A DNA stretch of 22,400 bases from Nitrospinota bacterium (GTDB lineage: Bacteria > UBA8248), in the NCBI GenBank assembly GCA_030754595.1, contig JASLZZ010000047.1, positions 1 through 22,400 of the forward strand, written 5' to 3'. Of this stretch, positions 1-14,613 are shown piece after piece; positions within the stretch are counted from its first letter, which is position 1; each line of letters opens with the position of its first letter. Both the position numbers and the translations under genes were made by a program. The notes beneath the pieces are model-generated. The model worked only from the letters and a program-made list of their open reading frames with translations, was not told where the DNA came from and did no database searches.

Positions 1-138
1 CGCCACCTCCTCGGCGCCGCCCGACTCGGCAAGACGCTTCGTGATCGCCGCCGTCAGCGTTGTCTTACCATGGTCAACGTGTCCGATCGTCCCTACGTTC
101 ACGTGCGGCTTTGTCCGCTCAAACTTCGCCTTCGCCAT
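1..138 (-). CDS. tuf: Elongation factor Tu, N-terminus (runs off window)
   Basis: Manual translation from ATG at 138: [34 protein letters not shown], with the G1 motif GHVDHGKT. Lies downstream of the tRNA cluster. Confidence 0.98.
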
Positions 139-198
139 GGCTTCTCTAACTCCAATTCAAGGAAGTGAATAATTTCAAGCTTGTCCGCGCCGCGGTGG

Positions 199-274
<76 letters not shown>

Positions 275-439
275 ATGCCCCTCAAACCCGGATCAAAACC
301 TGCTGAATGAAACTCCCGATAATTGGACAACGCGGCTGGCTGGGCCGGCCCCGCCGTCAAAACCCATTCTCCTAAGATAAAGCCGAACCTCAGAATAAGC
401 CGAACCGCCCGGTTTCGAAAAGTACCGCCCCGTATAATC

Positions 440-515
440 TGGAGCGGGAAACGGGACTCGAACCCGCGACCCTCAGCTTGGAAGGCTGATGCTCTACCAA
501 CTGAGCTATTCCCGC
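440..515 (-). tRNA. tRNA-Gly(TCC)
   Basis: Begins GCGGGAATAGCTCAGTTGGTAGAGC, anticodon TCC, GTTCGAG T-loop, encoded CCA. Confidence 0.96.
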
Positions 516-557
516 CCAAGCCATCATGCCGAAATCCACAACCGCCAATAAAAAATA

Positions 558-642
558 TGGTGGGGAGGGGAGGATTCGAACCTCCGAAGGCTGAGCCATC
601 AGATTTACAGTCTGGTCCCTTTGACCACTCGGGAACCTCCCC
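558..642 (-). tRNA. tRNA-Tyr(GTA)
   Basis: 85 nt with long variable arm, anticodon loop CTGTAAA, GTTCGAAT T-loop, encoded CCA. Confidence 0.96.
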
Positions 643-692
643 AGACCTATATCTTCATACATCCGCGAAGGCCCCTTCGCGCTCCATAATAA

Positions 693-767
693 TGGAGCTG
701 GCGAGAGGAATCGAACCTCCGACCCGCTGATTACAAATCAGCCGCTCTACCGCTGAGCTACGCCAGC
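693..767 (-). tRNA. tRNA-Thr(TGT)
   Basis: Begins GCTGGCGTAGCTCAGCGGTAGAGC, anticodon loop TTTGTAA, encoded CCA. The Thr-Tyr-Gly-Thr-tuf order matches the tufB-type operon. Confidence 0.96.
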
Positions 768-782
768 CAGCAAAGGCGCGTT

Positions 783-8366: not shown

Positions 8367-8897
8367 TCACCGAAGTCCAAACTGGCGGCCAATGTACTGG
8401 TAGACCGAGTCGTGCATGAACTCCCGCTCGAGGTGAAGGGCCATGACGCACTCTTCGAATTTATCCGTCAGCTTCCGGTAAAAGCTGGCCGAGGGCCGCA
8501 GGGCATCGATCTCGGCGACGTGATAATAAGCCGCTTTTCCCTGGGAGACATAAAAATCCGGATTCCTCTTTCTGTGTTCGAGGTTTTCAGGGTAAAGGCC
8601 CGCGAAGAACAGGCACACATCGCCCATATGCCTTTTCAGCTCACGCACGGAGGCGTTGTCCATCCCCTGGGCATCGGTGAGGAAATCCACGACATGCTCC
8701 AGATGCTCTCCCGACTTCCGGCTGCGCCGGAAGAGTTGATCGACGTGGACGAACCGCAACAGCATTTTCCAGACATACTCGATGACTTCCCGATCCCGGA
8801 AACCGACGGCGTTGAAGGCGGACTCCGTCGAGGAGCGCAGGAAGCGGCCCAGCGAATGCGTCTCGGAGATTTGACCGGATTTGCCGATATCAAACAT
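8367..8897 (-). CDS. Conserved hypothetical protein
   Basis: 176 aa ORF with an SD-like GGGAG. The motif HMGDVCLFFAGLYP...FYVSQGKAAY resembles an uncharacterised family I recall from other bacteria. Confidence 0.75.
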   Translation of the reverse strand: MFDIGKSGQISETHSLGRFLRSSTESAFNAVGFRDREVIEYVWKMLLRFVHVDQLFRRSRKSGEHLEHVVDFLTDAQGMDNASVRELKRHMGDVCLFFAGLYPENLEHRKRNPDFYVSQGKAAYYHVAEIDALRPSASFYRKLTDKFEECVMALHLEREFMHDSVYQYIGRQFGLR

Positions 8898-11131: not shown

Positions 11132-12013
11132 ATGACAGGGGTTCTTTTCGCCGCCATCGCCGCGCTCTCCTGGACGGTTTTCAACTTCACCCTGAAAACC
11201 GCCTTCCGGGACGCTTCTGTCTTCAAGGCCACGGCGGTCGCCACCGGGCTGAACGCCCTGTTCGTCACCGTAGTCTCCCTGCTCATTATCCCCCCGGCCG
11301 AATTCGTGCCGAAAAACGCCGATACCATCCTCTATCTCGGGCTCGCCGGCGTATTCCACGTCGGCCTGGCCCGCGCTTTTTTCTACACCGCGATTCACCG
11401 CCTGGGCCCGTGCCGGGCAACCCCGTTCGCGATGAGCTACCCGATAGTCACCGCCCTGACCGCCGCCTGGTTTCTCGGCGAGCCGGTCACGGCGGCCATC
11501 ATCGGCGGCCTGGTTCTCCTCCTCGGAGGCATCGCCCTCATCGTCCAGGCCGACCCGGCCCGGCCAGAGACCGGCCAGAGCGCCGCACCCTCGTGGCGAA
11601 TCGTCGGCTGGGCCTGCGCGGCCACCACAGCCCTTCTCTGGGGAATCGCCGCCACCTTCTTTAAAAAAGCGGCCCTGGAGGTTCACCCGCTGGCCGTGAC
11701 CTCGATTGCCCTCTGGGTCGGCTTCGGCGTCTCCTTTTTGATCTCGAGGTGGATGGACCCCGAAGGCCGGGTTTCGGGGAACGCCAGGCGATGGCTCCTG
11801 CTCTCGGCCGCCCTCCAGACCATCGCCGTCCCGTGCTACGTCCTCGCCTTCACCCACACGCTCGCCGTCCGAGTATCGGCGATCGTCTCGATCCAGCCCT
11901 TCCTGGCGATACCGATCGGCTGGCTCATCATGCGCGAGGCCGAGAACATCACATCGCGCCTCGCGGTCGGGGCGGCCCTCGTCGTCGGGGGGACGATACT
12001 CGTCATCCTCTGA
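11132..12013 (+). CDS. DMT/EamA family transporter
   Basis: About 10 hydrophobic helices in two repeats, with FLGEPVT and GWLIMRE motifs. Confidence 0.88.
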   Translation: MTGVLFAAIAALSWTVFNFTLKTAFRDASVFKATAVATGLNALFVTVVSLLIIPPAEFVPKNADTILYLGLAGVFHVGLARAFFYTAIHRLGPCRATPFAMSYPIVTALTAAWFLGEPVTAAIIGGLVLLLGGIALIVQADPARPETGQSAAPSWRIVGWACAATTALLWGIAATFFKKAALEVHPLAVTSIALWVGFGVSFLISRWMDPEGRVSGNARRWLLLSAALQTIAVPCYVLAFTHTLAVRVSAIVSIQPFLAIPIGWLIMREAENITSRLAVGAALVVGGTILVIL

Positions 12014-12069
12014 CGAGGCGCGCACCCCCGGAATCATCTCCTCGGGCCGTATCCCTCCCAAAAAGCAGG

Positions 12070-12078
12070 TGGTAAGAT
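12070..12078 (+). promoter_or_regulatory. Candidate extended -10 promoter for the OsmC-family gene
   Basis: TGgTAAGAT about 40 bp upstream of ATG 12118; strong SD AAGGAG at 12105-12110. Confidence 0.4.
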
Positions 12079-12117
12079 CCCCTCCTTCAATACACTTCAT
12101 CGAAAAGGAGACAACCG

Positions 12118-12594
12118 ATGGGAGAAGTCGTTCACGTCACCAAGGCCAGAGTGGTGAAGGAGCCCGGGAAGGGGATGAAAACCGCCTACCTTGAAGCCTT
12201 CCCCGAGGAAGCGATCCCCTACGGGATCCACGGCGGCATCATGAACTACTACAAGGCGAAACCCGAAGTGGAGCGGCCCGCGACGCTGGACCATCTCGTC
12301 GCCGCCGTCGCCGGCTGACTCACCGGCAATATGGGAGGCGCGCTGGATGCGCGTGGGATAACGAGTTCACCGGACAACCTCGTCGGCCACGTCGAGGGAA
12401 TTATCGAGGACGTGGACGGCATGGCGCTAATCACCAAGATCAAGATCAACTACAAGGTGCGAATCCCCAAGGGCAAGCGCAAGGAAGCCGAGCGCGCGCT
12501 GTCGGTCCACGACCTGGGATGCCCCGCGAGCCAGAGCGTTCAGCGCGGGATCATCGTCGAGCACACAGCCGAGTTCGAGGAAGTGGACGAATAG
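12118..12594 (+). CDS. OsmC/Ohr-family peroxiredoxin-like protein, probable selenoprotein (Sec67)
   Basis: The 66 aa and 87 aa ORFs are in the same frame and separated only by TGA 12316-12318 (context HLVAAVAG-U-LTG). The second catalytic motif GCPASQSV is present. Full length 158 aa. Confidence 0.85.
12319..12357 (+). promoter_or_regulatory. Candidate bacterial SECIS element
   Basis: Hairpin GCGCGC-TGGAT-GCGCGT (12338-12354). The apical loop starts 25 nt after the UGA and has G at loop position 2. Confidence 0.55.
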
Positions 12595-12609
12595 AGCCCG
12601 CAGTTCACG

Positions 12610-12650
12610 AAAAATCCCCCGCGTCTTTCGTCGGCGCGGGGGATTTTTTT
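12610..12650. terminator. Bidirectional intrinsic terminator
   Basis: AAAAATCCCCCGCGTC-loop-GGCGCGGGGGATTTTTTT between the convergent OsmC and SSS genes. Confidence 0.88.
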
Positions 12651-12687
12651 CCTGTCCCGATTTCAATCCCTGAAGTTATTCCTCGTT

Positions 12688-14613
12688 TCAGGGGCCCTTT
12701 CCCGCCCGCCGGTCTTGCGCCCGCCGGTCAGACGCCCCCCGGCCCTCGACCCGCCAGCCAAGCACCCGCCGGTCCTCCACCCGCCGGTCCTCCATCTCCT
12801 GGCCCGGCGCCTGCCAGCCAAACATCCATAGCCCGCCGCCAGCAATGAGAAGCGCAAGCGCGTAGCCCGCCACCCCCGCCCAGGTGCCGATGAGCAGCGA
12901 ACCCAGGCAAAACATCCCGGCGAAGACCATCAGGCTCGTGAGCGCCCACCGGGCCAAGAGCCCGCCCACCGGCGCTCCCGCCTCGCCCGGCTCCCGGACC
13001 GGTCCCCATGCGCCGGGCGGCTTGGCTTTCGCGTAAAAGGCGCGCAGCGTTTCCCGCTCCACCGGGCGGCTGATCAGCGTCGCCGCCAGCATCGCCGCCC
13101 CCCCGGCCACGACCTCCCAGAGCAGGAGCACCGCGAACTCGGGCGGGCGATCGCCCATGTTGAGAACCATCGCCGTCGCAAACGCGGTCACCATCCCCGC
13201 CACCTCGGTCCAGGCCGTCGTCCGCCACCAGAGCCAGCGCAGGATCACCGGCAGCCCCAGCCCCGCGCCGAGCGAGACGTTGAACTTCCAGGCCCACTCG
13301 ATCGAGGTGATTTGAGACGCCACCGCGAACGAGCCCAGCGACATCAAGAGCACCACCGCCCGGCTCGCGCGTACGGCCTCTCGCGCACTGGCTTCCGGGC
13401 GCAGAAAGCGCGCATAAATATCGTTGATGAGATAGCTCGTCCCCCAGTTGAGGTGGGTGTCCACCGTGCTCATGAACGCCCCGAGCAGCCCCACCAAAGA
13501 AAGACCGAGCAGCCCCGCCGGGAGCAGGTGACCCATTAACAGCGGATAGACCGCCTCGCGGTCGGCGAGGACCCGCGCCGCGAGAGTGCCCGCAGGAGCC
13601 TCCATCCCCTTCGGGAAGAGGACGAGGCCGACGAGGCCGATGAGGATCCAGGGCCAGGGCCGGACAACGTAATTCACGACCGCGAACCAGAGCACGCCCT
13701 TTTGGGCGTCCCCGGGGGTGGCCGCCGCGCTCGTCCGCTGGGCCATGTAGCCCCCGCCGTCCGCGTTTCCCTGCGCCCACCAGACCACGAACAGATAGAT
13801 CAGGATCACCTGCCAGCCCGCCCACTCGGCCCCCTCGGGCGGGGTGAAGGAGAGGATGTCCGCCGCCCCGGCCGCCCCGTAAATCTCGGTCAGCTTACCG
13901 GTCAGCCCAGAGAGCCCGCCCACGTGCGCCACCGCCACCCAGGCGAACATCACCGCGCCTGCGAGTGCGATCACGAACTGAAAAAGGTCGGTCAGCATGA
14001 CCCCCCGGACCCCCCCCGCGCTCGAATAAATCCCGACCAGGAGCACCAGCGCCGCCACCGTCACCGTCTCGTTCAGCGTCCCCATGACCAGCATCCCTGG
14101 CCAGCCCGCCTCGACCGCACCCCAGACCCCGGCCGGCAGGATTTCATTCCACCTCAAAAACGGGGCCGCGATTTTGCCCATCGCCCTGAAAACCCAGCCC
14201 ATCACGATCAGGTTCACGACGAGGGATGAATAGATCGCCTTGAATCCCCGGAGCCAGCTCCCGGGCCCCGGCCCGTAGCGCCGCTCGACGATCTCGGCGT
14301 CGGTCACCACCCCCGCCCGCCGCCAGAGCGGAGCGAAAAACGTCGCCACCCCCACCGCCCCTATCGCCCAGGCCCACCAGAACCAGTTTCCCGATATCCC
14401 CCGGTTGGCCACGATCCCCGCCACCACCAGCGGGGTGTCCGAGGCGAAGGTGGTCGCCACCATGCTCGTCCCGACCCACCACCAGGGGAGCGACCTGTCC
14501 GCCACGAAATAGGAAGCGATGCTCGTCGAGGAGGCTTTAGAAGTCCAGATGCCGACACACACCGCGAACGCGAGATAGGCGAAGATCAATGACCAGTCGA
14601 TGAGGGTTAGCAT
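12688..14613 (-). CDS. Sodium:solute symporter (SSS family)
   Basis: YFVADRSLPWW..GTSMVATTFASDTP, GVMLTDLFQF and AFMSTVDTHLNWGTSY motifs; many TM helices. Confidence 0.92.
   Translation of the reverse strand: MLTLIDWSLIFAYLAFAVCVGIWTSKASSTSIASYFVADRSLPWWWVGTSMVATTFASDTPLVVAGIVANRGISGNWFWWAWAIGAVGVATFFAPLWRRAGVVTDAEIVERRYGPGPGSWLRGFKAIYSSLVVNLIVMGWVFRAMGKIAAPFLRWNEILPAGVWGAVEAGWPGMLVMGTLNETVTVAALVLLVGIYSSAGGVRGVMLTDLFQFVIALAGAVMFAWVAVAHVGGLSGLTGKLTEIYGAAGAADILSFTPPEGAEWAGWQVILIYLFVVWWAQGNADGGGYMAQRTSAAATPGDAQKGVLWFAVVNYVVRPWPWILIGLVGLVLFPKGMEAPAGTLAARVLADREAVYPLLMGHLLPAGLLGLSLVGLLGAFMSTVDTHLNWGTSYLINDIYARFLRPEASAREAVRASRAVVLLMSLGSFAVASQITSIEWAWKFNVSLGAGLGLPVILRWLWWRTTAWTEVAGMVTAFATAMVLNMGDRPPEFAVLLLWEVVAGGAAMLAATLISRPVERETLRAFYAKAKPPGAWGPVREPGEAGAPVGGLLARWALTSLMVFAGMFCLGSLLIGTWAGVAGYALALLIAGGGLWMFGWQAPGQEMEDRRVEDRRVLGWRVEGRGASDRRAQDRRAGKGP

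Follow-up and report, generated by a model that had tools for sequence, protein, structure and literature searches.

The locus at positions 12118–12594 raises the question of whether its internal TGA ends one small gene ahead of another, or encodes selenocysteine (Sec) within a single gene. It lies on the forward strand of the window, by which we mean the whole stretch of 22,400 nucleotides analysed here (contig JASLZZ010000047.1 of the Nitrospinota assembly GCA_030754595.1). The table 11 ORF list gives an ORF of 66 aa (12118–12318) and another of 87 aa (12331–12594) in one common frame. The TGA at 12316–12318 (codon 67) is the sole internal stop of the span, TAG at 12592–12594 is its terminal stop, and read-through yields a protein of 158 aa. 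A Shine-Dalgarno-like AGGAG (12106–12110, forward strand) is placed 7 nt before the ATG. An intrinsic terminator-like hairpin with A- and U-tracts (12609–12649, assigned to neither strand) sits between this gene and a convergent sodium:solute symporter gene, and it probably serves both directions. It has 17 bp and a z-score of −5.2, and 0 of 200 shuffled sequences were equally stable; a terminator scan also reported it, with 2 sites found against 2.4 expected by chance. Thus the two same-frame ORFs, the single TGA, the 158-aa read-through product, the Shine-Dalgarno sequence, the gene's own terminator and a hairpin 20 to 36 nt after the TGA were all found as the preliminary description had them. 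The gene is single-copy in its own genome by tblastn.

On strong comparative support, we regard it as very nearly certain that the UGA at 12316–12318 is a Sec codon, because the Sec machinery, the conservation of the codon, the Cys homologues and a putative SECIS hairpin all agree. Our search of the genome (3.55 Mb, 96.9% complete, 6.4% contamination) found selA, selB, selD and tRNA-Sec (selC), all over their cut-offs, with selD itself carrying one TGA. The machinery needed for the Sec residue proposed earlier is therefore in place. Among the 51 genomes of the phylum, selA is present in 49 (48 of the 50 others), and the two in which it was missed are incomplete bins, at 67% and 79%.

By profile search, 47 of the 51 genomes of this Nitrospinota-labelled phylum carry the gene, with 48 full-strength matches of one TGA apiece and three weak matches without a stop (E about 1e-12). 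Its close database entries are split in two, most of the 77 close matches being C-terminal halves of 86–89 aa and 22 stored proteins stopping at residue 66. The gene is single-copy in 46 of the 47 genomes carrying it. The four genomes without it (G008, G009, G027 and G028) all have selA. In an alignment of 42 loci, some genomes being counted twice, codon 67 is TGA in every one. The amino-acid sequence is kept on both sides of the TGA even though synonymous sites have diverged: the two halves of one related gene (L052) are 80% and 76% identical to those of the window gene in amino acids, with identical synonymous codons at 0 of 17 and 7 of 36 sites.

Analysis of the homologues showed Cys at position 67 in 69 of the 90 rows spanning the site (one protein counted twice). 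The other 21 rows have R (4), G (4), S (4), W (3), L (2), A (2) or D (2), and some of them look like frameshifted fragments, whereas others are distant members lacking both Cys. The nearest Cys homologues are about 50% identical to the window protein. The in-frame UGA is thus aligned with a conserved Cys, including the Cys of OsmC in 1ukk and 1qwi, and the expected alternation of Cys and TGA is seen across the homologues. Together with the machinery, this bears out the placing of Sec at the peroxidatic position. A non-Cys residue such as Trp had been named as evidence against Sec; the residue is mostly Cys, but three Trp rows do exist in the protein databases.

The predicted bacterial SECIS element is at 12338–12354 on the forward strand, with a GC stem of 6 bp (12338–12343 with 12349–12354) and a 5-nt loop, UGGAU (12344–12348), which has G at its second position. 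It occupies +20 to +36 after the UGA, where the preliminary description placed it, and its loop starts at +26. The bacterial SECIS model in PMC13188914 has a stem of 4–16 bp, a loop of 3–9 nt, G in loop position 1 or 2, and a loop 16–37 nt from the UGA; the hairpin agrees with all of these, as scored with our own rule and not with bSECISearch. Folding of 12316–12370, as suggested earlier, gave a weak z-score of −1.5. Over the stretches folded the energy gave z from −1.0 to −2.2 (−2.2 for 12328–12365), and the 101-nt stretch 12300–12400 folds differently, with z 0.0. We therefore dropped folding energy as proof of a SECIS element, and the support given here comes from conservation instead.

Codons +8 and +11 after the UGA are GCG in 48 of 48 distinct Sec genes, and codon +9 is CTG in 47 of 48. 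The 77 distinct Cys genes show no such constraint at +8 and +9, although +11 is still GCG in 70 of them. Sampling a single gene from each of 13 genera gave 34 conserved codons of 4- or 6-fold degeneracy; five of them were invariant, four of these within the hairpin. The hairpin rule, which was written after the hairpin had been seen, is satisfied by 48 of 48 Sec genes, by 19 of 77 Cys genes, which form one clade of close relatives, and by 5 of 145 ordinary TGA stops of long ORFs, a rough control because some of these ORFs are likely to be spurious. Four of the six stem pairs are invariant and two vary on one side; two-sided compensatory change was found in 0 of 6, so that covariation was dropped as proof of the stem. 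Shifting the stem partners lowered pairing from 99% to 2–81%, and the shuffle control was uninformative. Only one Sec gene has a broken stem at the original hairpin, L073 (the second copy in G025, 1693–1742), and it has an 8-bp hairpin with a GGGG loop shifted towards the UGA (z −2.4).

The read-through product of 12118–12594 (forward strand) is predicted to be a selenoprotein with the OsmC/Ohr fold. It scores 31 bits against the Pfam OsmC model PF02566 (cut-off 27.5), and its structure model has a pLDDT of 96.8. The best fold matches are OsmC, Ohr and Ohr-like structures (Foldseek E 1e-9); the match to 2onf has Z 14.9 and rmsd 2.1 over 139 residues, while the first unrelated fold has Z 7.3. 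The predicted Sec67 (12316–12318) and Cys135 of the GCPAS motif (12520–12522, the resolving-Cys position) align with the two catalytic Cys of OsmC, so score, fold and both catalytic positions place the protein in PF02566. In our alignment of 54 family members (A2), position 67 is Cys in 52 rows, the query being counted as Cys, and position 135 is Cys in all 54.

The residues around this pair differ from those of the Ohr and OsmC peroxidases. In Ohr the catalytic Glu lies 10 residues before the peroxidatic Cys (Glu51 and Cys61 in XfOhr; PMC5962072). Here position −10 is Leu57, and its column has L in 42, I in 5, F in 3 and Y in 3 of the 54 rows, Glu not being among the four commonest residues. 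The catalytic Arg of the β1–β2 loop (Ohr) or the β3–α1 loop (OsmC) is also missing, as no Arg is conserved at the 60% threshold in residues 1–66 of the alignment. The loop Arg was judged on sequence, and an Arg such as Arg79 or Arg126 may reach the site from elsewhere. The residues conserved in the family are Gly36, His38 (42 of 54), Asp58 (52), Gly70, Arg79 (49), Arg126 (46), His131 (47) and Cys135. His38 (12229–12231, forward strand) is in a GxHG motif, in the loop region where OsmC has its catalytic Arg. Asp58 (12289–12291, forward strand) belongs to a TLD motif 9 residues before Sec, and is Glu in the remaining 2 rows. His131 (12508–12510, forward strand) lies one helical turn before Cys135, in helix 121–134 of the model. 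His38 and His131 are candidate active-site helpers. Four distant proteins (P0183, P0185, P0197 and P0200) have both catalytic positions replaced, by Gly or Ser at 67 and by Ser or Ala near 135, and are possibly a non-redox sub-branch.

At a little better than an even chance, we read the gene as encoding a 158-aa Ohr-like selenoprotein, made by SECIS/SelB-dependent read-through, that reduces organic hydroperoxides with the pair Sec67 and Cys135. SelB would bind the hairpin at 12338–12354 and bring Sec-tRNA to the UGA of codon 67. The protein would act as a homodimer with its active sites at the interface, as is usual for Ohr and OsmC (PMC5962072). Comparison shows the positions of Sec67 and Cys135, and the two would form a redox pair: the selenolate of Sec67 would attack the organic hydroperoxide, the resulting selenenic acid would condense with Cys135 to give a selenenyl-sulfide, which would be re-reduced by lipoylated proteins or by some other dithiol. 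Since the usual Arg and Glu are missing, activation would rely on the reactivity of Sec and on the conserved His38, Asp58 and His131. Organic hydroperoxides are favoured because theirs is the only activity that we found reported for the fold, and because the genome has four biotin/lipoyl-domain matches.

The peroxidase function is the weak step of this interpretation. The seleno-peroxidase of the preliminary description is not established, as the protein lacks the Glu and Arg on which Ohr and OsmC depend for this activity, just as the Ohr-like/YhfA group does. For that group peroxidase activity is described as uncertain (PMC5384416, PMC8945050), and YhfA-type proteins as remaining to be studied (PMC8945050). 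PMC5384416 states that both Arg and Glu are required for peroxidatic activity; its authors saw none in a Trichomonas Ohr-like enzyme without them, in which, as the same paper reports, another group had detected it. Nor do the Sec genes lie beside stress genes: their neighbours encode an EamA transporter, a methyltransferase, a Na/Ca exchanger and a symporter. At the 19 Sec loci compared, the neighbours are housekeeping or transport genes, syntenic within the family and different in other families, and no redox operon was found.

The absence of Arg and Glu, and the presence of another conserved set (His38, Asp58, Arg79, Arg126 and His131), would also suit a true selenoprotein with the Sec67/Cys135 pair that is not mainly a peroxidase but a reductase of disulfides or persulfides, or an S/Se carrier, possibly tied to sulfite or nitrite reduction. 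We consider this a serious contender, though below an even chance. Its further support comes from the metagenome loci of a Cys branch (L127–L206), which are the best 80 of 218, found by Cys-containing patterns, so that no Sec:Cys ratio can be derived from them. Ahead of the gene there lies an unnamed gene of about 200 aa in 70 of 70 loci whose upstream flank is 300 nt or longer, as well as a NirA/sulfite-reductase-like gene in 51 of 51 whose flank is 1000 nt or longer; a PrdB-like gene occurs too in 2 of the 80. However, these 80 loci are 74–93% identical to one query and represent one lineage, and none of the three neighbours was matched at any Sec locus tested. The reductase homologue of the own genome is on another contig, and no homologue of the 200-aa gene was found there. 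A full-text literature search found no paper joining Ohr-like and OsmC proteins with sulfite reductase.

In this Cys branch, whose Atlas cluster is mostly Acidobacteriota, the reductase-like gene is about 750 aa long (e.g. L205:1118–3964), the 200-aa gene has no Pfam or NCBIfam match, and the Cys-form gene is often followed by a gene for cytochrome c oxidase subunit II. PrdB/GrdB-like genes are also found in the own genome of the window, at C94:27952–28551, C108:6858–7544 and C109:5428–6039.

A wider proposal, which we think unlikely though worth stating, is that Sec was gained independently in the window branch (and perhaps in a third branch, L233), that a site of His38, Asp58 and His131 replaced Arg and Glu, and that the protein serves non-peroxide S/Se redox chemistry with a sulfite/nitrite reductase partner in its Cys relatives. 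If true, the OsmC fold would have a function new to it, and nearly all of a marine phylum would share a selenoprotein family that the catalogues lack.

It is very improbable that the TGA is instead a real stop, whether between two small genes (of 66 and 87 aa, the downstream one from the ATG at 12331), in a pseudogene or through an assembly error. In favour of a stop, most entries close to the gene in the databases are cut at the TGA, TGA is an ordinary stop in this genome (it ends 145 of 428 long ORFs), and Met72 is an ATG in 40 of 48 Sec genes. But all 66 loci with a stop at codon 67 have TGA there, none having TAA or TAG; codons 68–71, which would be non-coding, keep their amino acids, and 8 of the 48 genes lack the ATG. 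The break sits exactly at the catalytic residue, and the Cys homologues carry the same domain unbroken. Nor is the TGA an assembly error, because DNA runs of two other studies carry the same codon: among 4 of 24 matching runs examined, two span 11900–12800 and show no other letter at codon 67, so that the TGC or TGT considered in the preliminary description did not appear. Two RNA-library contigs (X15 and X17), which as contigs show neither transcription nor strand nor level, also cover the UGA with no variant listed at the codon. All the runs holding at least half of the sampled words (14 of 24 rows) are marine or seawater samples.

Least probable of all is decoding of the UGA as Trp or some other standard amino acid, by an altered code or leaky read-through, since TGA is an ordinary stop in those 145 long ORFs and ends the upstream EamA gene, the sole tRNA found with a UCA anticodon is tRNA-Sec and tRNA-Trp has the anticodon CCA, against which stand only the three rows with Trp at position 67 (P0059, P0084 and P0131, of 90). 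These Trp residues may be TGA codons translated by annotators under another code; for P0059 this is suggested by C-terminal pieces of 58–61 aa in the same cluster.

TGA-bearing forms of the gene extend beyond this phylum. They were found in both genomes of a small second phylum (that of G039), in which a second TGA serves as terminal stop; family members were found in 0 of 120 genomes in the phylum of G036. A plasmid collection searched with P0080 gave no match. ESM Atlas, with the Cys homologue P0006 as query, returned only automatic 'OsmC-like' clusters. Half-proteins of the family also occur, as protein records only, under the labels Gemmatimonadota, Tectomicrobia, Acidobacteria and Thalassobacillus cyri. 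The last of these, WP_093045702.1 (P0104), is an 89-aa C-terminal half starting at position 68, and is a candidate Sec form in a cultured bacterium.

Elsewhere in the window, positions 1–770 (reverse strand) hold the 5′ end of an elongation-factor-like GTPase gene with a Thr-Gly-Tyr-Thr tRNA cluster at the contig start, a cluster that is the usual arrangement before tufB. A 176-aa ORF without a Pfam match (8367–8897, reverse strand) appears to be conserved near the gene in relatives.

OsmC-like selenoproteins as such are already known. They were predicted in 2005 from the Sargasso Sea (PMC1088965) and again in GOS (PMC2398784), and they form one entry (PF02566, motif UxxT, MCS5647933.1) among the 119 prokaryotic selenoprotein families in Table 1 of the 2026 catalogue PMC13188914. 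This published type is NCBIfam NF041052 (OsmC_like_Se). Like the window protein, it belongs to the superfamily with Sec at the first-Cys position, the second Cys kept and a hairpin after the UGA; both are known from prediction, with no experiment listed. They differ in motif: every published sequence compared, namely 3 of 3 from the Sargasso Sea, 2 of 5 from GOS and the deep-Sep representative (PMC1088965, PMC2398784, PMC12013277), has GF-U-LLT, whereas the window protein has AG-U-LTG, which is UxT and not UxxT, together with GIHGG and TLD motifs. U-[LM]-T-G is present in 42 of 42 loci.

The NF041052 model (cut-off 95 bits) gave no match to the window protein at E≤1, and the gene is absent from its 7 matches in the genome. 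Weak matches to the model were given by 32 of the 54 window-family members (best E 1.7e-8), and BLASTP of the window protein against 14 members of the NF041052 clade reached a best E of 3.2. NF041052 itself occurs in 48 of the 51 phylum genomes at 1–11 copies. The own genome has two full members over the cut-off, C45:9969–10394 and C131:5518–5910 (both forward), and a fragment, C50:28151–28324 (reverse), all with an in-frame TGA.

In a tree of 111 rows, 86 belonging to the window family and 14 to the NF041052 type, the two form separate clades with SH-aLRT 99 each, in what is a quick LG+G4 analysis with long outgroup branches, L237 left out and the groups set by searches beforehand. The confirmed Sec forms of the window family lie among Cys forms. 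This suggests only that Sec arose separately in the two branches: holding all Sec forms as one clade is not rejected by the AU test (p-AU 0.122), and since one shared origin still stands, independent gain was dropped as an established result. One further TGA-bearing OsmC-domain gene, L233 (G030:C6:216723–217040, motif GLGL-U-TVVT), lies outside both Sec clades and is possibly a third Sec branch; in its genome, 8 of 11 OsmC-domain matches carry TGA.

By its motif, its miss by NF041052 and its separate clade, the window family is distinct from the published OsmC-like selenoproteins compared, in line with the divergent subfamily supposed earlier. No member of it turned up in motif searches of the supplements to PMC1088965, PMC12013277 and PMC2398784, and we did not find it described in the OsmC and selenoprotein literature, where the supplements of PMC13188914, the BSepDB family table and the neighbourhood paper of Haft and Tolstoy might hold it. 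BSepDB lists three genomes of GTDB UBA8248, which is probably the phylum of the window, with 48–54 selenoproteins, this lineage being among the richest (PMC13326102). It may miss the window gene, because it was built by tblastn from representatives of known families (PMC13326102). PMC13188914 treats Sec motifs that differ within a single domain as distinct subfamilies, so the window branch would be a further entry.

Compared with E. coli OsmC (TIGR03562) and Ohr (TIGR03561), which are lipoyl-dependent organic hydroperoxide reductases, the window protein shares the fold (Foldseek E 1e-9; HH-suite probability 89% for E. coli OsmC) and both Cys positions align. However, it scores only 21 and 13 bits against the two models (cut-offs 86 and 89), and at −10 it has Leu instead of Glu, with no Arg conserved in the N-terminal loops. 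It resembles the Ohr-like/YhfA structures 2onf (TA0195), 1ml8, 2pn2, 2d7v and 1lql in its fold (Z 13–15), in the spacing of the two catalytic positions (68 residues here, about 60 in theirs) and in the absence of both Arg and Glu. It differs from them in having Sec for the first Cys, a short helix 39–45 and conserved His residues of its own, at an identity of only 12–16%. The OsmC fold, the two catalytic positions and the lack of Arg and Glu nevertheless make the window protein a member of PF02566 and of the Ohr-like group, which is defined by exclusion (PMC5384416), and not of NF041052, TIGR03562 or TIGR03561. Our analysis thus points to a well-supported selenoprotein gene that represents a second Sec-bearing branch of the OsmC superfamily. 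The role of Ohr-like proteins without Arg and Glu is a stated gap in the Ohr/OsmC literature, and the natural Sec and Cys forms of this family, at about 50% identity, offer a clean pair for probing them.
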